Positions 6,032-20,000 of a DNA stretch of 20,000 nucleotides are shown in pieces (within the stretch, counting starts at the first letter, position 1; each line of letters begins with the position of its first letter). Under the pieces are notes generated by a model, which had not been told where the DNA came from, did no database searches, and was given only the letters and a program-made list of their open reading frames with translations. The position numbers and the translations under genes were made by a program. The DNA is from an uncultured virus (IMG/VR IMGVR_UViG_3300021399_000146) (Duplodnaviria > Heunggongvirae > Uroviricota > Caudoviricetes): IMG/VR virus record IMGVR_UViG_3300021399_000146; one strand, given 5' to 3'.

Positions 6032-6068
6032 AAAAAAGAAAAAGAATTGTGGGGGGCATAAAGCCCCC
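6032..6068 (-). terminator. intrinsic terminator ending the Ro60/Y-RNA unit
   Basis: GGGGGC-TTTAT-GCCCCC hairpin followed by T-rich tract on the minus strand. Confidence 0.7.
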
Positions 6069-6140
6069 AAGGTAAATGATGAAACTATTTGTAGAACGTC
6101 GGAGGTCCACCAATGGATCCTAACCAAGGTGGGCCATATA

Positions 6141-6323
6141 TAAAACCGCTCATGAGAATAATGGTGGCAGTGTATAGTTTGCCCAGCGCCTCCGTGTTAA
6201 ACGCAGTATCCTGTTCCCGATACCATCGGCTTTAATGTTTAACTACAACCGGGGAGTGTCTTTTAAAATAATTATCAATTATTCAATGAAGTAACACTAC
6301 CGTCTGCTTCATGAGCGGTTTTA
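6141..6323 (-). ncRNA. Y-RNA-like RNA A (YrlA-type module with non-tRNA cargo)
   Basis: 15-bp terminal inverted repeat; GAAGCAG, GGTAGTGT/ACACTGCC stem, TACTTC and TTCTC motifs; begins 7 nt after the Ro60 stop. Confidence 0.75.
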
Positions 6324-6330
6324 AACTTAT

Positions 6331-8055
6331 TTAATTTTTGGGAGACTCATGAGGAGAAGTGCTCTTCCACTCTATGTTATCCCACTGCTTGATGTATTCG
6401 TGTGCAAAGAGTATCTCTTTGCCAGTCCATCCTGTAAGCATTGCACATCTGTATGTCATCTGAGGAACTACGACGTTGTCATATCCCGCAGTCTGAACAG
6501 AGAATACATTGAGCTTTGGGTTAACCTTCTTACGGTAATCAAGTATAAGCTTGTATACATTGATCATACCGCGAAGGTCTACTTGTCTATCCCTTCCCCA
6601 TACTTTGTATGTCCAACGTGAACGCTGTCCATACTTATAACTGAACTCATCTATGTATTCCCTCTGATCCTTGCCGGTTCCATACAGACCACCACAGCCT
6701 GCTTGCATGTCAGAGAATATGAACAAGTTGTCAACCCATACATGATTCTCGATAGCATTCTTGAACCATTTCCAGATTCCTCCTTCGGTCTGACCACCGA
6801 TATCAGAATAATGGTCGGCATCGATTTCTGATGCCTGTTTGAGAACACCATTTCTGTGTGAAACAGGAAACTCTTTGTAGTTGTCACCGAACTTGACAAC
6901 GTAGCCCTCATCTGAACACTGCGCTGCAATGACAGATGACAGATTGTCGATATGCGCTACTGTGGTAGAACCGTATTCACTTGTCAGTGCACCCCAAGCG
7001 GAGCCGGAGTTATCAGACAGAGATACGGTAACACCTTTGAGTTTAGGGAGGTTCTCGACTGCGGCATCGATACACTCCTCAAGACCGTCAAGTATAACAG
7101 GAAGATGATGTACTTTACTCTCATTCTTGAGTCTGTTGTAAGCAGCCTCATATCTGAATGGGAACTGTTTTCCTTCCTTTACGCCATCCTTAAGATCAGC
7201 CATATATGCCTTGCAGAATTCAATATCATCGATTTCTGTGAAGACATTCTTGATGTTCCTCAGGAGAGCCATGTGTCCCATCTTGGTAGTAGCAAGAATA
7301 TCCTTCCAGCTCATACCACGAGACTTCTTCTGCTCCCATGTCTCATCCTCTTCTTTAACCTGAACCGTACCAGTCTTCATAAGTTCATCAAGAACCTCTG
7401 AATTAGCATGAGTCAAGCGTACTGCATTGATCATACCAAGATCAGCATTCTTATACTTATTAACCTGATAACGGCCAAGATGAGAAAGCTTATCAGCTAT
7501 ACTCCTCTTGAGGATAGAAGGCATGTTGTTCTTCTTACCTTCGTTGATGAAGAGGTAATAAGAACACTGTGATGCAGGCTCATCAGCCCTCATCATAACC
7601 TGTGCATTATATTCGTTGAACTTGCCAGGATTCTGGTCAGACCATTCTTTCCTTTTGGGATGAACGGCTGCACGAACCATGATTACCTGAGGATTCAACC
7701 TCATGTAGTAATCCTTTCTAAGCTCAACCGCAAGTTTCAGAGTTCCCTCAAAGTCATAGTCAAGAGCCTTGTCTATAACCTCCTGGAAGATCTCCGTTGT
7801 TGACTTCTTATCATAGTCTTTCGTGATGAGTTCATCATCTTCGAAAGTAGCATCTTCCTTCTCAAATGTTCCATCTGAGATGTTGTTTCTGTAATAGGAA
7901 GGCTCACCAAAGATAGAAGAAGCAGCAACCATTTTGAGAGTATCGAGTGGATTAATCTTATAAGATTGACCTCCCATAAAGTTTGTCACTACTTCATCAG
8001 GCTTGAGTTTCTGATTATCAGTCATCTTCTTAGCCATGTCTGAAATTCTGCTCAT
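6331..8055 (-). CDS. Ro60/TROVE-domain RNA-binding protein (Rsr-like, TROVE + vWA)
   Basis: 574 aa; N-terminal NFMGGQSY, HMALLRNI, QFPFRY, vWA MIDAS DNSGS and later FSD motif; RBS AAGGAGG. Confidence 0.92.
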   Translation of the reverse strand: MSRISDMAKKMTDNQKLKPDEVVTNFMGGQSYKINPLDTLKMVAASSIFGEPSYYRNNISDGTFEKEDATFEDDELITKDYDKKSTTEIFQEVIDKALDYDFEGTLKLAVELRKDYYMRLNPQVIMVRAAVHPKRKEWSDQNPGKFNEYNAQVMMRADEPASQCSYYLFINEGKKNNMPSILKRSIADKLSHLGRYQVNKYKNADLGMINAVRLTHANSEVLDELMKTGTVQVKEEDETWEQKKSRGMSWKDILATTKMGHMALLRNIKNVFTEIDDIEFCKAYMADLKDGVKEGKQFPFRYEAAYNRLKNESKVHHLPVILDGLEECIDAAVENLPKLKGVTVSLSDNSGSAWGALTSEYGSTTVAHIDNLSSVIAAQCSDEGYVVKFGDNYKEFPVSHRNGVLKQASEIDADHYSDIGGQTEGGIWKWFKNAIENHVWVDNLFIFSDMQAGCGGLYGTGKDQREYIDEFSYKYGQRSRWTYKVWGRDRQVDLRGMINVYKLILDYRKKVNPKLNVFSVQTAGYDNVVVPQMTYRCAMLTGWTGKEILFAHEYIKQWDNIEWKSTSPHESPKN

Positions 8056-8101: not shown

Positions 8102-8225
8102 ATAGACCCATAAGAATATTTATACTGTGTAAATTTTATATCCCGCGGAGACAGTTGCGGTCGCTAAACATTGTCAGCATTTTGGCGTCTCGAAGTAACA
8201 GCATAGGTCTGCATTATGGGTCTAT
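8102..8225 (-). ncRNA. Y-RNA-like RNA B (module with pseudoknot-like cargo)
   Basis: 12-bp terminal IR ATAGACCCATAA; TGCAG, TATGCTGT/ACAGTATA, TACTTC, TTCTT. Confidence 0.75.
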
Positions 8226-8236
8226 AATAATAAGCG

Positions 8237-8386
8237 AACATGCATGAGAATATTGGTACGGCGTACATAACCCATCTTTTGGAAAGATGGGTCGTCAGGA
8301 ATTGAACCTGAAATGTAAGATTTGCAGTCTTATGTGTTTACCATATTTCACCACGAAGTATCCGTACCGACTGCATCATGCATGTT
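8237..8386 (-). ncRNA. Y-RNA-like RNA C containing a complete permuted tRNA-Cys(GCA) cloverleaf
   Basis: 11-bp terminal IR; module plus D arm, TAAGA-CTGCAAA-TCTTA, TCAGG-TTCAATT-CCTGA, and an acceptor hairpin closed by a CCA loop. Confidence 0.8.
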
Positions 8387-8495: not shown

Positions 8496-8637
8496 GATAT
8501 TATAACGAGAATAATGATAGGGTTTAATAAGCCAAACGCTCTAACCTATTGAGCTAATTTCCTAAGACAGGGAATAAAAGAATCGAACTTTCAACATTTT
8601 GGGAAGTAACCCATATCGACTGCTTCGTTATAATATC
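8496..8637 (-). ncRNA. Y-RNA-like RNA D (canonical YrlA topology)
   Basis: 13-bp terminal IR; module, then CCAAA, T arm (TTCGATT), loop-closed acceptor, D arm GCTC/GAGC, TTTGG. Confidence 0.85.
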
Positions 8638-8720: not shown

Positions 8721-8868
8721 AAACATAAACGAGAAAAATGCATTCGGGTTATGGTCTTACCAGTGACCGGCATAGCCCATAGGACTATGAAGAGATTCGA
8801 ACTCTTGGATCGGTTTTAACGTGACATGTTAATCGAAGTAACCGAACGCTACTGCATCGTTTATGTTT
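8721..8868 (-). ncRNA. Y-RNA-like RNA E (permuted tRNA retaining an Asp-like GTC anticodon hairpin)
   Basis: 12-bp terminal IR; module, TTAAC-ATGTCAC-GTTAA, AAGAG-TTCGAAT-CTCTT, closed acceptor, GGTC/GACC D arm. Confidence 0.8.
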
Positions 8869-8952: not shown

Positions 8953-9106
8953 TGGTGGGGGAGGACAGGATTCGAACCTGCGAAGCATAATGCACCGGAT
9001 TTACAGTCCACGAATGAAGTATCCGTTACCGCTGCATCATCATTAGACGAGAATTATGTAACGGCGTCCTTGGTTCAGGCGCCTTTGGCCACTTGGCTAC
9101 TCCCCC
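8953..9106 (-). ncRNA. tRNA-Tyr(GTA) interrupted at 28/29 by a 68-nt Y-RNA module (insert 9010-9077)
   Basis: GGGGGAG/CTCCCCC-ACCA acceptor, long variable arm; CC|insert|GGA-CTGTAAA-TCCGG. Confidence 0.8.
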
Positions 9107-9119
9107 ATATTAATATAGA

Positions 9120-9236
9120 TATCAATTGCTCCTTTCACCCAGGAGGGACTCGAACCCTCGTCTTCTTTCATATGTTATATAACATACTACTCAACGCATT
9201 AACCTCTGTGCTACCAGACTGCGGGAGCAATTGATA
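9120..9236 (-). ncRNA. tRNA-like RNA (D and T arms, no anticodon or CCA, 13-bp closing stem)
   Basis: TATCAATTGCTCC IR; TAGCACAGAGGTTAATGC D arm; GAGGG-TTCGAGT-CCCTC T arm. Confidence 0.6.
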
Positions 9237-9238
9237 AT

Positions 9239-9377
9239 TGGGCCGGAATACAAGAATCGAACTTGTGACAAGGGGATTAACATTCCATGAAGTATCCGTT
9301 ACCGCTGCATCATCATTAAATGAGAATATTGTAACAGTATATTTTCACCTACTCTAACCAACTGAGTTAATTCCGGC
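9239..9377 (-). ncRNA. tRNA(GTT, Asn-like) interrupted at 28/29 by a 61-nt Y-RNA module (insert 9287-9347)
   Basis: GCCGGAAT/ATTCCGGC-CCA; GG|insert|GGA-ATGTTAA-TCCCC; ACAAG-TTCGATT-CTTGT. Confidence 0.8.
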
Positions 9378-9381
9378 ATGT

Positions 9382-9521
9382 TGGGGCTGGATACATGACT
9401 CGAACATGTGACACGGGCGGCCCTATCGCAACGAAGTAACTCATACTCCTGCATCATCGTTAGATGAGAAATAACGTACAAGTACATTTCTACCTGCTCT
9501 ACCGACTGAGCTAATCCAGCC
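9382..9521 (-). ncRNA. tRNA(AGG, Pro-like) interrupted at 28/29 by a 63-nt Y-RNA module (insert 9430-9492)
   Basis: GGCTGGAT/ATCCAGCC-CCA; GG|insert|GCG-ATAGGGC-CGCCC; ACATG-TTCGAGT-CATGT. Confidence 0.78.
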
Positions 9522-9551: not shown

Positions 9552-9570
9552 TCACGATAATAATATGTAT
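9552..9570 (-). promoter_or_regulatory. putative phage promoter motif copy 3 (ATACATATTATTATCGTGA)
   Basis: Consensus match about 30 nt upstream of the first interrupted tRNA. Confidence 0.65.
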
Positions 9571-9682
9571 TTCATTTTTATAAATAATAGAAATGAAATA
9601 ATGATAAGATAGGAAGGGAATGGTACCACAAACGTGGTACCATTCAGGTGTTGTATAGATACAGTCCTGGGTGAGACTGTAT

Positions 9683-9766: not shown

Positions 9767-9918
9767 AGCTTCATGAGAAAATCATAAATGGTTAAATGTG
9801 ATAATGGGTGCTTATTTCAGCGTCTGCCAATTTCGCCATGTATGGAATTCCATACAGCAAGATTCGAACTCGCATGCGTCCTGTTATGAAGTAACCATCT
9901 ACTCTGCATCACAAAGCT
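9767..9918 (-). ncRNA. Y-RNA-like RNA I (permuted, Leu-like D arm)
   Basis: GATGCAG, TAGATGGTT/AACCATTTA, TACTTC, TTCTC; GCGAG-TTCGAAT-CTTGC; TGTATGG-AATT-CCATACA closed acceptor; GCGAAATTGGCAGACGC. Confidence 0.8.
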
Positions 9919-10098: not shown

Positions 10099-10196
10099 AC
10101 ATTACAAAGTATTCTATCAGACTCGAACTGATGACCTCTTGCACCATTCGGTGATCAAGCGCTCTAACCATCTGAGCTAAGCGTCCAATGCAATGT
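10099..10196 (-). ncRNA. tRNA-like RNA / pseudo-tRNA (intact D and T arms, remodelled anticodon arm, mismatched acceptor, no CCA)
   Basis: TAGCTCAGATGGTTAGAGC; CTTG-AT-CACC-GAAT-GGTG-CAAG; ATCAG-TTCGAGT-CTGAT; outer ACATTGCA/TGTAATGT stem. Confidence 0.6.
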
Positions 10197-10699: not shown

Positions 10700-11037
10700 A
10701 CATATCTATCGATGATGTTCTTACATGACATCTATACAGGGATCATTGTCTATAGACTAATCCATTGTACGATTCTTACTTGAACTACCGTACCTAACTT
10801 GATTATCAGGGTGACACTAACGATCAGGTCACATCTTCATCGATTCAATATGTTGATCCTATGTTGCGCTCGTGAGTTGACGAAACCCCGGCTTTCCCTT
10901 CAGGCTTAGGTTTAACCTGGCTTTGTGTAAGGTCGACGGTTTAACGTTCTTCCATACTGTCTACTACAGTGAGGACCGCCTCCCACATAGGCATCATGAG
11001 TTCGAACTATGATTCGCTACTAACGATGTGGCCACCA

Positions 11038-15601: not shown

Positions 15602-16369
15602 TCATTCAACTCTATCGAGCGCGTTGGATAAGCGTATATTCTCAAAACGGTCTCTTACTTCTTCAGCCTTACCACAGGTCATTTTTCCTTCACTGCATTT
15701 ACCTGTAACGGCACATGATGGACCGGCATGCCTAAATATATCTGGTGCTACATTCTCACAGAGTTTATACATTTCTATTGCTAAATCTCTTATTTCCCAC
15801 TGCGCTCTATTACAGCAGCGGAGTTTGAAGAAGTTGAATAATGAACGAACATTCATTGTTACAATGATAGATGTTTGACATGCATTCGGAAGAACCATAC
15901 GAGCATCCTCATTCGCTTTCTTTTCAGCAGCTTTCTGATCCATGCCCTGATTGATAAAGTCTTCTATCAAACAGCCTCTGATGCTTTCATAGTCAACCTG
16001 AATAGAAGCCATCAGATATTCATATGCCTGTAATGCCGCTGGACAATTCTTGATACTCTCGGGGATAACATAGTCAAACTGTGTCTCATCAACATAACGC
16101 TGAGACTTCTGAGAGTAAGAAGCGATACGATGACGAACCAGTTGGTGTGAACATGCCCTCGAGATACCTTCAATTGCAAAGGTAAATGTTACATGCTCTA
16201 TTGGTGATTCATGACCAAGCTCAAACAGCATGTTCAAGAACTTCTCCGTCTTCTCAGGGGTGAGTCCTTCCTGAAGAGACTCGATGTCTGAAGAAGAATA
16301 ACACAGCTTTGCGGCTGTTGCTATTACTTTCTCTGGGTCGGGTGTGTGTGCAATAAGCTTAACTTTCAT
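15602..16369 (-). CDS. thyX: FAD-dependent thymidylate synthase
   Basis: GHESPIEH, SRACSHQLVRHRIASYSQKSQRY ThyX signature, AQWEIR. Confidence 0.96.
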   Translation of the reverse strand: MKVKLIAHTPDPEKVIATAAKLCYSSSDIESLQEGLTPEKTEKFLNMLFELGHESPIEHVTFTFAIEGISRACSHQLVRHRIASYSQKSQRYVDETQFDYVIPESIKNCPAALQAYEYLMASIQVDYESIRGCLIEDFINQGMDQKAAEKKANEDARMVLPNACQTSIIVTMNVRSLFNFFKLRCCNRAQWEIRDLAIEMYKLCENVAPDIFRHAGPSCAVTGKCSEGKMTCGKAEEVRDRFENIRLSNALDRVE

Positions 16370-17784
16370 TTCTTTTCCTCCATATAATCATAGTCTTTTA
16401 AAAATATTCCATACAAAGCAAGTTTATCAACAAGCTCCTTTATGGATTTTTTACCAAGGTTTCTGACATTCAACAGTTGTGAATACTGTAATGTCGACAA
16501 TGTTGCTACATCATTTATACCTGCACGGTATAATGCGTTGTAGGTTCTTATTGACAAATTCATATCTTCCAATGTGGCCGGTATAAACAGTTTTACATCA
16601 CCCGTTTTTGCAACACGTAACTCCTGGTTTGTTTTAATCAAACCTTTTTCATATCCACACATGAGAATGTTATACATCAATGGGTTATCTGATATATATG
16701 AATAAATATCAGGAAGTGTTGCACCAACTGATGCAGGAATTATCAGATTTGCAACAGCATAGAATTCATCAGATGGTCCTCTGAATAGTTCTTCAATTAC
16801 GGGATCACCAACATTATCAGTTACCAGTCTAAAACCATTGGTTATCAGTTTTCCGTACTTTGCAGCATTGCGTAATGTATGCAATGCTTTTACATAAATT
16901 TGCTGTAATCTTCCTGCTGACGGATAACCATGATGTGCTTCACGTATAGCTGTTAAAGATTTCCCATCGACGAATTTTTCTTTTATAATTATGAACTCCC
17001 GTTCATTGAGTAACCTCCTACAGTTAAAAAGGATCACCTTTGATAGACTTTGTTCATGATTAATTATAAACTCGGTATCTGTTATGTTTTCATTTTTTAT
17101 AAATGTATCAATGAACGTGTCGCTTGTGAAAACATTTGATTGTATTAAATTATCACTGTACATTGCTCTTATTACATTCCATGGGAAATACGAAACTAAC
17201 GGAAATTTGATTTTGTCGTTAGTGATCACACGTAATGCATCTACGATATGCCTATACTGACACCATCCTGCTGCACCATGTTTGAGTTGATATTTAATAG
17301 CAAACATTTTGAAGTCATCTATTGTATGTACGTTGTTATAGTTGAGCTCCCGTATGGTTCCTTTCATTCTTGCATTACACATGATCTGGTTAATATGATT
17401 TATATTTGGATTCGTATACTCGGGTTGATTAAATACCCTTCTTGATATGTTCATATGTATTTTTTCAACATTTCTAAAGCTGACTACATACAAAAGAGGA
17501 TATTCTTCCATATACGAATCCTTGATTGAAGGATTTGTCATACCGAAGTAATACTTCATTAAATATGCAACAACTTCGTCTGAATTATAACCCGAATCCC
17601 ATAGAGACTGGCTTATTGCATCATATATCTTTTCAAGATCGAAGTTATCGATATTTTCCCCATATAAATTTATGAGGTCACGGTCATTCAGTGTCTTGAT
17701 GAACTCATCGACAGTAGTCGTTTGGTTTAACCCGAAAATGTTCTTACTGATATTATCAGCCATTTTTGTTAAATTGAATTTCAT
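16366..17784 (-). CDS. protein with sigma70 region-4-like HTH and C-terminal RNA polymerase alpha-CTD-like domain
   Basis: LNEREFIIIKEKF.DGKSL.AI......S.GRLQQI..KAL..LR; LEDMNLSIRTYNALYRAGI.....L......L..VRNLGKKSIKEL. Confidence 0.75.
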   Translation of the reverse strand: MKFNLTKMADNISKNIFGLNQTTTVDEFIKTLNDRDLINLYGENIDNFDLEKIYDAISQSLWDSGYNSDEVVAYLMKYYFGMTNPSIKDSYMEEYPLLYVVSFRNVEKIHMNISRRVFNQPEYTNPNINHINQIMCNARMKGTIRELNYNNVHTIDDFKMFAIKYQLKHGAAGWCQYRHIVDALRVITNDKIKFPLVSYFPWNVIRAMYSDNLIQSNVFTSDTFIDTFIKNENITDTEFIINHEQSLSKVILFNCRRLLNEREFIIIKEKFVDGKSLTAIREAHHGYPSAGRLQQIYVKALHTLRNAAKYGKLITNGFRLVTDNVGDPVIEELFRGPSDEFYAVANLIIPASVGATLPDIYSYISDNPLMYNILMCGYEKGLIKTNQELRVAKTGDVKLFIPATLEDMNLSIRTYNALYRAGINDVATLSTLQYSQLLNVRNLGKKSIKELVDKLALYGIFLKDYDYMEEKK

Positions 17785-18717: not shown

Positions 18718-19317
18718 TTAATAGACTTTACCTTGACCTTTCAGATAATCATATTCAACAGGTGGTTTCATATGGTCCTTCATGTTTCTCATACGATTCA
18801 TGTATGCATCAGGATCTTTATCACATTCAAGAATCTCTCCAATGTTCATTCTGATGATATGCTTTTCCTGACTGTCGGTTTCTTCATTATAATAGTGCAT
18901 GACATACAGGTAGTCATCTTCAGATGTCTGTTGAACGAAACTGATACGATCACATGCATGACCATGTTTACACTGCATTACATATGGAATCGTATTAACC
19001 TTATCAACATGCTCAAGATAATACTTGAAGTAATTATCATGTGTGAAGAACTTTGCGTCTAATGTGAGAATATCATACATACAACTCTCATCAGTATCGA
19101 GATTCTTAACAAGGAATTTGTATTTTTCATTAGTTCCTTTAAGCTCATATTGATTCTCTAAATAATCAACAACATAGAATGGTTGAAATGTTTCCTTATC
19201 AAATATGATGCGTTCATTGTTGTCCGGTTTGTCACTTTCTCTGTGATATAAGAATTCTGGCTCAAAGCAACGTATCAAACCACCCCAATATTGGGTTAAC
19301 TTGTCAATCAGATCCAT
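18718..19317 (-). CDS. hypothetical protein
   Basis: 199 aa, RBS AAGGAGG. Confidence 0.7.
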   Translation of the reverse strand: MDLIDKLTQYWGGLIRCFEPEFLYHRESDKPDNNERIIFDKETFQPFYVVDYLENQYELKGTNEKYKFLVKNLDTDESCMYDILTLDAKFFTHDNYFKYYLEHVDKVNTIPYVMQCKHGHACDRISFVQQTSEDDYLYVMHYYNEETDSQEKHIIRMNIGEILECDKDPDAYMNRMRNMKDHMKPPVEYDYLKGQGKVY

Positions 19318-19756
19318 GTTCAGCCTCCTTATATTCCTTTCTCAAATCCATGAGAATTATACCCAGCATGTTTTTACCCTTACCACCGGATACACCCCAG
19401 AACTTGTCATGCCATACATTACCTTCTATGAGACACCTGTCACCAGTGGCGATCAGCTTCTCTCTGATTTCCGGGTTTTGATCAAACTTGGCTTTGACAA
19501 CTTTTCTCATTATGTCAACCTTGACATCTTCCCAGTCCTCACGGAGTTTAACCTTTTTGCCCAGTTTCTTTGCAGCACCTGGTGTTAGTTGTGAAAACTC
19601 AAGTTTCGTCTTAGTGTCTTCGCATTTCTGTGCCTGAAACGCTGCTTCCGAATTCTTATAATCTATACCATCAAATGTTATATCACATAGATAGAAATTT
19701 GACAGGAAGAAGAATTCACCCCTGAACTCAGTTATTGCATCTTCATCAATTGTCAT
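19304..19756 (-). CDS. NADAR (YbiA-like) family hydrolase
   Basis: FLSNFY, SEAAFQAQK, AKKLGK, DWEDVK, KAKFDQN, LIEGN.WHD.FWG, GKNMLG.ILM motifs; start at 19756 by RBS GAGGAGG. Confidence 0.92.
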   Translation of the reverse strand: MTIDEDAITEFRGEFFFLSNFYLCDITFDGIDYKNSEAAFQAQKCEDTKTKLEFSQLTPGAAKKLGKKVKLREDWEDVKVDIMRKVVKAKFDQNPEIREKLIATGDRCLIEGNVWHDKFWGVSGGKGKNMLGIILMDLRKEYKEAEHGSD

Positions 19757-20000
19757 TTTGGTGTTCCTCCTCATTTTCTGTTATAACATCATATTTCGGT
19801 GAATCATCATCGTCATCATCGTCAGGTGAGGATGGTTCATTGAGAAATGATGGTTTCTCAACTTTATGAAGAATTTCTATTCCAACGATAACTTTGTTAT
19901 GTAATAAATCTCGTGCAAAGATGTTAATATTCCTGAGATTATCACCATCCGGAATAGTTATCATGATAAAATTTCGAGTGATATCGCATACAGTACCAGT
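19746..20000 (-). CDS. hypothetical protein (5' end outside window)
   Basis: Frame of ORF 19746-19964 stays open to 20000; acidic C-terminal tail. Confidence 0.6.
   Translation of the reverse strand, partial: TGTVCDITRNFIMITIPDGDNLRNINIFARDLLHNKVIVGIEILHKVEKPSFLNEPSSPDDDDDDDSPKYDVITENEEEHQNDN

Follow-up and report, generated by a model that had tools for sequence, protein, structure and literature searches.

The stretch considered here (the window) comprises 20,000 nucleotides (nt) of DNA from an uncultured phage, IMG/VR record IMGVR_UViG_3300021399_000146, which originates from ruminant-gut metagenomes; the DNA runs that cover most of it are labelled as gut or sheep-gut metagenome. The window encodes a UvsX-like recombinase, an SbcD-like nuclease, and ThyX as phage markers, and its minus strand carries a dense array of RNA genes, running from about position 10700 down to 6145, together with the gene of a Ro60 (TROVE) homologue at 8055-6331. 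Three genes of this array, designated A, B, and C, resemble genes of transfer RNAs (tRNAs) that end in CCA, and each of them harbours within its anticodon stem a loop-closed hairpin related to the stem of the Y RNAs encoded alongside. These chimeric genes represent a real and conserved class of RNA, which belongs to the Y RNA and tRNA-mimic kind.

The Ro60 gene (6331..8055, minus strand) lies directly downstream of the RNA array, 0.9-1.5 kb downstream of genes A-C and on the same strand, an arrangement that recurs in the related loci L316, L320, and L127. Its product, a protein of 574 amino acids (aa), scores 22.1 bits against the Pfam TROVE model, slightly below the 23-bit cut-off, and has more than 3000 relatives; PF05731 is present in many of them, and their contigs reach about 285 kb. 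Moreover, a profile of 24 relatives matches the solved Ro60 of Thermus phage phiLo (9KOP) with an E value of 1.9e-13, and PHROG 850, annotated as an RNA-binding protein, matches the protein itself with an E value of 3e-42.

Three tRNA-like genes with a Y hairpin in the anticodon stem

Gene A (9106 to 8953, minus strand) has a tRNA-Tyr-like body, the 5' half of which consists of a 7-base-pair (bp) acceptor, a 3-bp D stem, a D loop with G18G19, and two bases of the anticodon stem, immediately followed by an insert of 68 nt (9077-9010). After the insert come the remaining three stem bases, the loop CTGTAAA, the 3' strand of the stem, a long variable arm, a T arm with TTCGAAT, A73, and an encoded CCA. 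Genes B (9377 to 9239, minus strand; loop ATGTTAA) and C (9521 to 9382, minus strand; loop ATAGGGC) have class I bodies and carry inserts of 61 nt (9347-9287) and 63 nt (9492-9430), respectively, at the same place, so that in all three genes, which measure 139-154 nt, the insert follows position 28 of the anticodon stem (site 28/29) and has T as its first and last base. An earlier note on this DNA had described three CCA-ended tRNA genes with inserts beginning and ending with U, and its coordinates and sequences are confirmed. The normal 5' ends that it ascribed to all three genes are found in gene A, and do not apply to B and C, where the acceptor helix consists of 8 pairs, with a G:C pair at -1:73 (G-1:C73 in gene C), before the CCA.

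Deletion of each insert restores an anticodon stem with 5/5 Watson-Crick pairs and a 7-nt loop, as had been claimed, and does so only at these boundaries, since shifts of 1-4 nt leave 3-4 pairs. ARAGORN calls none of the three genes in their native form and all three after in-silico deletion of the insert, as tRNA-Tyr (gta) for A, tRNA-Asn (gtt) for B, and tRNA-Pro (agg) for C; AGG is not a usual bacterial anticodon. The Rfam tRNA model (RF00005) matches none of the three genes, even at E values of up to 10. The features of the ends and elbow of canonical tRNAs are present, including the acceptor with its 3' CCA, U8, G18G19, and TTCRA, and the corresponding columns are invariant. Gene A also keeps G1:C72, A73, the long variable arm, and GUA, which we take to be the bacterial tRNA-Tyr identity set. 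The minimum free energy (MFE) fold of the whole gene B reproduces the acceptor, the D arm, the Y hairpin, the 3-bp anticodon stem, and the T arm.

Folded alone, insert A forms a hairpin of -18 kcal/mol (z -2.03) with an outer stem, a 7-bp inner stem, a 7x7 internal loop (TTCTC / GATGCAG), a 5-bp closing helix, and the loop TAAT. Insert B alone likewise folds into a hairpin whose internal loop is 7x7 (z -2.54). In both, this loop lies between the 7-bp inner stem and a closing helix, as in the free Y RNAs, the helix here having 5 bp and a tetraloop as its cap. Insert C forms a long hairpin in the centroid, but its MFE structure is different and its z-score is -0.71; its inner stem, CTTGTAC/GTATGAG, is compensatory with respect to those of A and B. 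The motif TTCTCRT-N4-6-GATGATGCAG occurs in three copies in the window against 0.00 expected from 200 shuffles, and the 5'-strand motif GCAG-N9-12-WACTTC occurs in nine, all on the minus strand, against 0.13 expected; three of these nine copies lie in the inserts and six in free-standing Y-like RNAs. These data support the identification of the inserts as the Y module of the locus with the order of its strands reversed and with a 4-5-bp helix, capped by a tetraloop, as the closure. The earlier note had already described them as the module of the neighbouring Y RNAs with its halves swapped and joined by a short loop, which agrees with the 7x7 loop, inner stem, and motifs that they share with the six Y RNAs.

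The six free-standing Y RNAs, all encoded on the minus strand, measure 122-175 nt and have their ends paired as a terminal stem of 10-11 bp. The cleanest predicted folds are those of 8722-8867 and 8498-8635, in which the terminal stem is followed by a 7-nt strand GA(T/A)GCAG, the inner stem, and a variable middle, and the 3' part would consist of the inner stem, a 7-nt strand with TTCTC, and the terminal stem. The RNA at 8722-8867 comprises, in this order, the Y 5' strand, an anticodon-like hairpin (5-bp stem, 7-nt loop), a T arm, a loop-closed acceptor, a D arm, and the Y 3' strand, and is therefore the exact circular permutation of genes A-C; the chimeras are in their topology the unpermuted counterpart of YrlA, as the earlier note had proposed. 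The YrlA-like RNA at 8498-8635 scores 26.3 bits with the Rfam YrlA model, whose gathering score is 69, and that at 9767-9918 shows the YrlA order as well, with a T arm, a 7-bp loop-closed acceptor, and a D-like arm within a 10-bp terminal stem. In the RNA at 8237-8386, the Y stem stands at the acceptor position, as in Yrn1, around D, anticodon (GCA), and T arms, and the Rfam tRNA model gives 46.5 bits at 8292-8356. The two remaining units lie at 8103-8224, which is without an evident tRNA-like part, and at 6145-6319, just downstream of the Ro60 gene. Thus, the same parts occur at one locus in three connectivities: the YrlA order, where the RNA ends lie in the Y stem; the order of 8237-8386, where the Y stem takes the position of the acceptor; and that of genes A, B, and C, where the acceptor is open and the Y stem closed.

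Conservation and the form present in RNA libraries

A locus search with the single Ro60 protein returned nothing, whereas profile-guided searches around Ro60 relatives found 64 viral loci, 78 metagenome loci, and 80 loci from metagenome-assembled genomes (MAGs) or genomes; among those fetched, L306 is the window's own contig, L317 is the same sequence as L126, and L312 the same as L127. The same architecture was found by script upstream of Ro60 in L126, L127, L159, L316, L318, and L320, and the Ro60 proteins of the related contigs are about 46-81% identical to that of the window. A window-like orthologue of gene A lies at L316:1162-1317, gene B has orthologues at L316:2570-2720 and L320:4293-4428, and those of gene C are found in L126, L127, L159, L299, L316, L318, and L320.

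A covariance model (R1), for which 10 sequences were given a structure set by hand, was applied to 221 Ro60 loci; genes A, B, and C score 70.1, 141.8, and 139.4 bits, respectively, and most of the matches are plain tRNAs of about 77 nt. The best 18 R1 hits, from 11 loci, were aligned (alignment A3) and comprise 17 chimeras and one plain tRNA. In this alignment, 97.4% of 568 cells are standard pairs, as opposed to 73.3% in shuffles and 38-44% in slid controls, and both sides have changed in 26/33 pairs, a number reached by 0/500 shuffles. The covariation among homologues that the earlier note had put forward as a check is thus present, with double compensatory changes in every helix, and it includes the pairs 27:43 and 28:42 that bridge the insert, each of which shows four pair types and is paired in all rows. 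In the anticodon stem, the three inner pairs form wherever letters are present. Moreover, an independent RNAalifold run on a MAFFT alignment recovers the acceptor, D, and T helices, both the inner and the closing helix of the Y hairpin, and the 3-bp anticodon stem; 18/31 pairs are compensatory.

The R1 score was rejected as an identifier of chimeras, as many long hits span the junction between two canonical Y RNAs in tandem; for example, L128:10102-10248 reaches 62.7 bits with only 5/7 acceptor pairs when checked by script. A heuristic classifier of the 79 distinct long R1 hits was dropped as too noisy, so there is no clean census across the 221 loci, and the matches from pattern scans of viral contigs were mostly isolated and due to chance, the scans contributing only L066 and a confirmation of L127 and L159.

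The insertion site that the earlier note had given as common to the three genes holds for these and for 14/17 aligned chimeras, in which the anticodon stem is split 2+3 (by eye, also in L325 and L409). It does not hold for the Tyr-type genes of L127, L126, L318, and L320, which keep the whole 5-bp anticodon hairpin after the insert and in which the D stem is decayed or lost; furthermore, the T loop is decayed in L299:3256-3390, and L155 and L156 differ again. The encoded CCA is present in the closer relatives of the window and absent in the C-type gene of L127 and in L159, L155/L156, and L166. The apical closure of the Y hairpin varies in length and sequence across relatives, whereas the internal-loop motifs are constant, and this conservation of the Ro60-site motifs next to a freely varying closure is the pattern of a working part and not of a spacer. 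Anticodons also differ among orthologues with the same body, being GTT or TTT in the B type and CAG, CTG, AAG, AGG, ATG, or an 8-nt loop in the C type; in the latter, positions 34-35 vary (CA/CT/AA/AG/AT), and 32-33 and 36-37 are constant.

Two further forms were observed among the related loci. In L409:4870-5137, from a MAG labelled Acetatifactor sp., a chimera with the 2+3 split CG | CGA-CTTTGGA-TCG | CG has the apical part of its Y hairpin enlarged by about 170 nt of further structure. L128:13173-13335 and L350:5573-5730 are CCA-ended tRNA genes with an insert of about 85-95 nt in the anticodon loop that contains D-arm-like and T-arm-like hairpins; these nested tRNAs are a second kind, distinct from the Y-hairpin chimeras.

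Contigs assembled from four metatranscriptome runs (three studies) were mapped onto the array. The insert boundaries of A, B, and C are crossed by contigs of three runs from two studies (X14, records 4 and 5; X5, records 26, 28, and 29; X17, record 12), and no joint that removes an insert was found among the assembled contigs of the four runs. All that these contigs establish is that RNA libraries contain the unspliced form. Two joints, 8708/9494 and 8903/9350, were discarded, since they connect tRNA-like parts and not insert boundaries, and their sides are short or separated by foreign letters; zero RNA depth at 9579-9665, upstream of gene C, in all four runs was not used as evidence, there being no DNA run for comparison. 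Record 26 of X5 matches 8953-9045 and then continues, exactly past the CCA of gene A, with 203 nt of unrelated sequence, which suggests that strains differ there and that the RNA genes may be shuffled as modules.

Nature of the chimeras and rival explanations

The three genes probably encode stable, unspliced, Ro60-binding chimeric RNAs that represent the unpermuted isomer of YrlA, with the tRNA part as an effector module. They could be transcribed within a polycistronic tRNA/Y-RNA transcript and freed, like their neighbours, by RNase P and the 3'-end and CCA machinery, since a tRNA body with an open acceptor and a CCA end makes release by the ordinary tRNA end-processing enzymes possible. The products would be RNAs of 139-154 nt with ends as stable as those of a tRNA, and most likely they would act without splicing. 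The loop-closed Y hairpin, branching from the 5' strand of the anticodon stem, may hold the phage Ro60, given that its internal loop is that of the free Y RNAs, whose terminal stem is the presumed Ro60-binding module. The chimeras share with YrlA-type Y RNAs both their parts and the circular order of these, the break falling in the acceptor and not in the Y stem. Their tRNA part (elbow, anticodon hairpin, and free CCA) could act as an effector module that engages host tRNA-binding proteins and, by analogy with the tRNA-like domain of YrlA, might contact its effector in the same way, here with a free CCA and an exposed anticodon hairpin. Candidate partners include a synthetase, EF-Tu, a tRNA-cleaving defence nuclease, and PNPase, to which Ro60 is tethered in known Ro60/Y RNA particles.

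Full-text literature searches, with supplements outside their reach, brought up no account of a tRNA that combines a CCA end with a loop-closed Y module, in agreement with the earlier note, which knew of none. The closest known RNA is YrlA (RF02553; Salmonella Typhimurium and Mycobacterium smegmatis), which also adjoins a Ro60 gene, combines a Ro60-binding bulged stem (predicted in the chimeras) with a tRNA-like domain that has a T arm, a D arm, and an acceptor, and has a Y stem that exits at the anticodon-stem position; in M. smegmatis, once cleaved by RNase P, it even acquires an open acceptor with CCA. However, YrlA ends in the Y stem and has a loop-closed acceptor and no free CCA as made, whereas the chimeras have tRNA ends with encoded CCA, a loop-closed Y stem, and an anticodon hairpin that is kept. 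Chen et al. (2014, PMC4201824) described YrlA from over 250 bacteria and phages, and Wang et al. (2018, 10.1101/312249) likened it to a circularly permuted tRNA, proposing an origin from a dimeric tRNA and raising its possible processing towards canonical tRNAs. The Rfam YrlA model gives no match inside any single gene A, B, or C; its 22.9 bits at 9325-9432, across the C-B junction, do not count as evidence, since the underlying order of T arm, acceptor, and D arm arises with any two tandem tRNAs. Yrn1 of Deinococcus radiodurans is Ro60-bound and has tRNA-like features and a possible anticodon arm, like the RNAs of this locus, among which the unit 8237-8386 has its order; unlike in the chimeras, its Y stem replaces the acceptor stem, and hence there is no CCA end.

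TROVE proteins have been noted in some jumbo phages (Iyer et al. 2021, PMC7824862). As in the window, the Ro60 of Thermus phage phiLo has Y-like RNAs (Yrl1 and Yrl2) just upstream (PMC12135203), and the same source reports that a phage Ro60 and its Y-like RNAs form a complex with host PNPase in vitro and cites mycobacteriophages, CcrColossus, and Bacillus phage G as other phages with Ro60; unlike the chimeras, the phage RNAs that it describes are Y RNAs of the stem-bulge-stem type whose free ends lie in the stem, none of them a CCA-ended tRNA. A 2026 preprint on three tRNA-mimic families was also considered and set aside, since the families it presents concern other RNAs. Transfer-messenger RNA (tmRNA) and the tRNA-like structure of turnip yellow mosaic virus (TYMV) have, like the chimeras, a free CCA end and an extra functional domain, and differ from them in being without a Ro60-type module and in their connectivity; a permuted-tmRNA match reached 11 bits, which is sub-threshold.

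Several observations weigh against the proposal of stable, Ro60-binding chimeras. The local motif [CT]GA[TA]GCAG fits the published GNCGAA(N)G only partly: the inserts read TGATGATGCAG, one free-standing copy reads ACGAAGCAG, and CGAAGCAG is found in only one free-standing copy. Binding could also be weakened by the closing helix, which is shorter in the inserts than the 10-11-bp terminal stem of the free Y RNAs. The MFE folds of full-length A and C deviate from the design in the insert and the anticodon region, and the z-scores of the whole-gene folds are modest (A -2.98, B -1.33, C -2.34). Moreover, alignment A3 was fitted to the structure of R1, so its pair counts are biased towards that structure, and assembled contigs reveal neither ends nor strand nor rare spliced forms and may reflect DNA carry-over. 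Lastly, an Rnl2-type ligase is encoded in 2/5 related phage records, and RtcB of the host or another ligase could act.

These last points bear on the alternative of an intron-like element, which the earlier note had considered and which is unlikely, in which the hairpin would be excised and the halves ligated into tRNA-Tyr, tRNA-Asn, and a third tRNA, with the Y module, perhaps with Ro60, guiding or timing the splicing. Exact removal gives perfect stems, 7-nt loops, and ARAGORN tRNAs in 3/3 genes, the presumed tRNA-Tyr identity set is retained in gene A, and each insert has U at both ends. However, neither RtcB, with which the earlier note had associated such genes, nor the archaeal splicing endonuclease (PF01974) was found in any of five related phage records (0/5 each; completeness 41-100%, two of them at least 96%). 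Archaeal non-canonical tRNA introns and split tRNAs share with the chimeras a self-paired intervening sequence within the anticodon stem. Archaeal tRNA introns depend on a bulge-helix-bulge and the EndA endonuclease, and no bulge-helix-bulge can be drawn in the chimeras, because the two insert junctions face each other at a three-way junction. Group I introns were rejected as well, since the inserts of 61-68 nt are sited in a stem, compared with a ribozyme core of about 200 nt or more in the anticodon loop, and no Rfam intron family matched the three genes. In addition, the anticodon varies among orthologues with the same acceptor and body, D or T arms have decayed in some relatives, plain tRNA-Tyr and tRNA-Asn genes are already encoded in the window (ARAGORN), and the RNA-library contigs show unspliced forms only. 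Those contigs also continue through the apical loops, which argues against precursors of two-piece Y RNAs, an even less likely explanation. Here, cleavage in the apical loop would give two base-paired halves, an end state like that of M. smegmatis YrlA, which occurs in vivo as two RNase P-cleaved halves with added CCA (Chen et al. 2014, PMC4201824); the apical closure is indeed the most variable part of the module, but the loops (TAAT, TTAA, TAAC, CTTG, and longer ones) contain no conserved cleavage motif. That the genes are dead, functionless tRNA genes broken by a copied Y module seems highly improbable. The identical 20-nt 5' strand of the Y module in A and B suggests recent copying between modules, whereas the double compensatory changes in every helix across contigs with such divergent Ro60 proteins, the retention of the acceptor, D, and T helices and of the encoded CCA, and the constant position upstream of Ro60 speak for maintained genes.

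A different kind of alternative concerns function only and is compatible with a stable chimera: the exposed anticodon hairpins may act as decoys that sequester, or signal the presence of, tRNA-cleaving defence enzymes, Ro60 and its partners being bound next to them, a role that the earlier note had also raised and that is possible without being likely. The loops resemble anticodon loops of Tyr, of Asn or Lys, and of a His-like type, which are target classes of known anticodon nucleases (colicin E5 type, PrrC, and retron-associated PtuAB), the genes lie within the phage tRNA array, and the rapid change of positions 34-35 among orthologues, with 32-33 and 36-37 retained, resembles an arms race. 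Nevertheless, the variation at 34-35 could equally stem from relaxed constraint, and the role is a candidate by analogy. It is doubtful that RNase P, the CCA-adding enzyme, and aminoacyl-tRNA synthetases (the tyrosyl enzyme for A and, via the -1:73 pair, the histidyl enzyme for B and C) accept the chimeras as genuine substrates, which would yield charged Ro60-carrying tRNAs, and that the chimeras are a living intermediate in the origin of YrlA. If this were true, charged chimeras would bring Ro60 and a recruited nuclease to EF-Tu, ribosomes, or anticodon nucleases, and a tandem pair like C and B would hold the whole YrlA order across its junction, which matches the dimeric-tRNA origin put forward by Wang et al. 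(2018, 10.1101/312249).

The chimeras keep everything that tRNA ends need together with a putative Ro60 handle, and therefore offer a direct way to ask whether Ro60 particles couple to tRNA processing, charging, or tRNA-directed defence. The working of the same parts in three connectivities at one locus also bears on the origin of YrlA. Moreover, as tRNA finders and Rfam overlook the chimeras, the inventories of phage tRNAs and Y RNAs are incomplete.

Other elements of the array and the window

A C-type gene directly followed by a B-type gene occurs in the window, where the two are 4 nt apart (9382-9377), and in L320:4279-4293, where they are 13 nt apart. Reading across the junction of such a tandem gives the YrlA order: the Y 5' strand and the T arm are followed by the acceptor strands, the D arm, and finally the Y 3' strand. 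A tRNA-like element situated between genes B and A, at 9135-9220 (minus strand, its stem extending to about 9125-9232), has a D arm and a T arm with TTCGAGT, and 29 nt around the anticodon compared with about 15 in the model; a terminal stem of about 12 bp, ATCAATTGCTCC / GGAGCAATTGAT, replaces the acceptor stem. It scores 27.8 bits with the Rfam tRNA model, against a gathering score of 29, and is without the Y motif. Another tRNA-like gene at 10105-10187 (minus strand; Rfam tRNA, 34 bits) has an enlarged anticodon region and a poorly paired acceptor and is preceded by a GC-rich hairpin, element and hairpin both being kept in L127 at about 6040-6161.

The ordinary tRNAs of the window number 11 according to ARAGORN, and 13 Rfam tRNA matches reach the gathering score. 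In the GenBank phage collection, no close phage was found, the sole match being the plain tRNA-Tyr of the window. A weak promoter-like site (TTTATA-16-TATTAT) lies upstream of gene C at 9557..9584 on the minus strand, in a promoter scan that was overall not above chance, with 12 sites against 16 expected. A contig of the cultured strain Acetatifactor muris DSM 23669 (L410) carries a Ro60 homologue 52% identical to that of the window, with weakly matching Y-like RNAs nearby. Finally, two open reading frames on the minus strand encode a 472-aa protein with an RNA polymerase alpha C-terminal domain at its end (16366-17784; E 1.2e-15) and a 156-aa NADAR-domain protein (19304-19774; E 8e-29).

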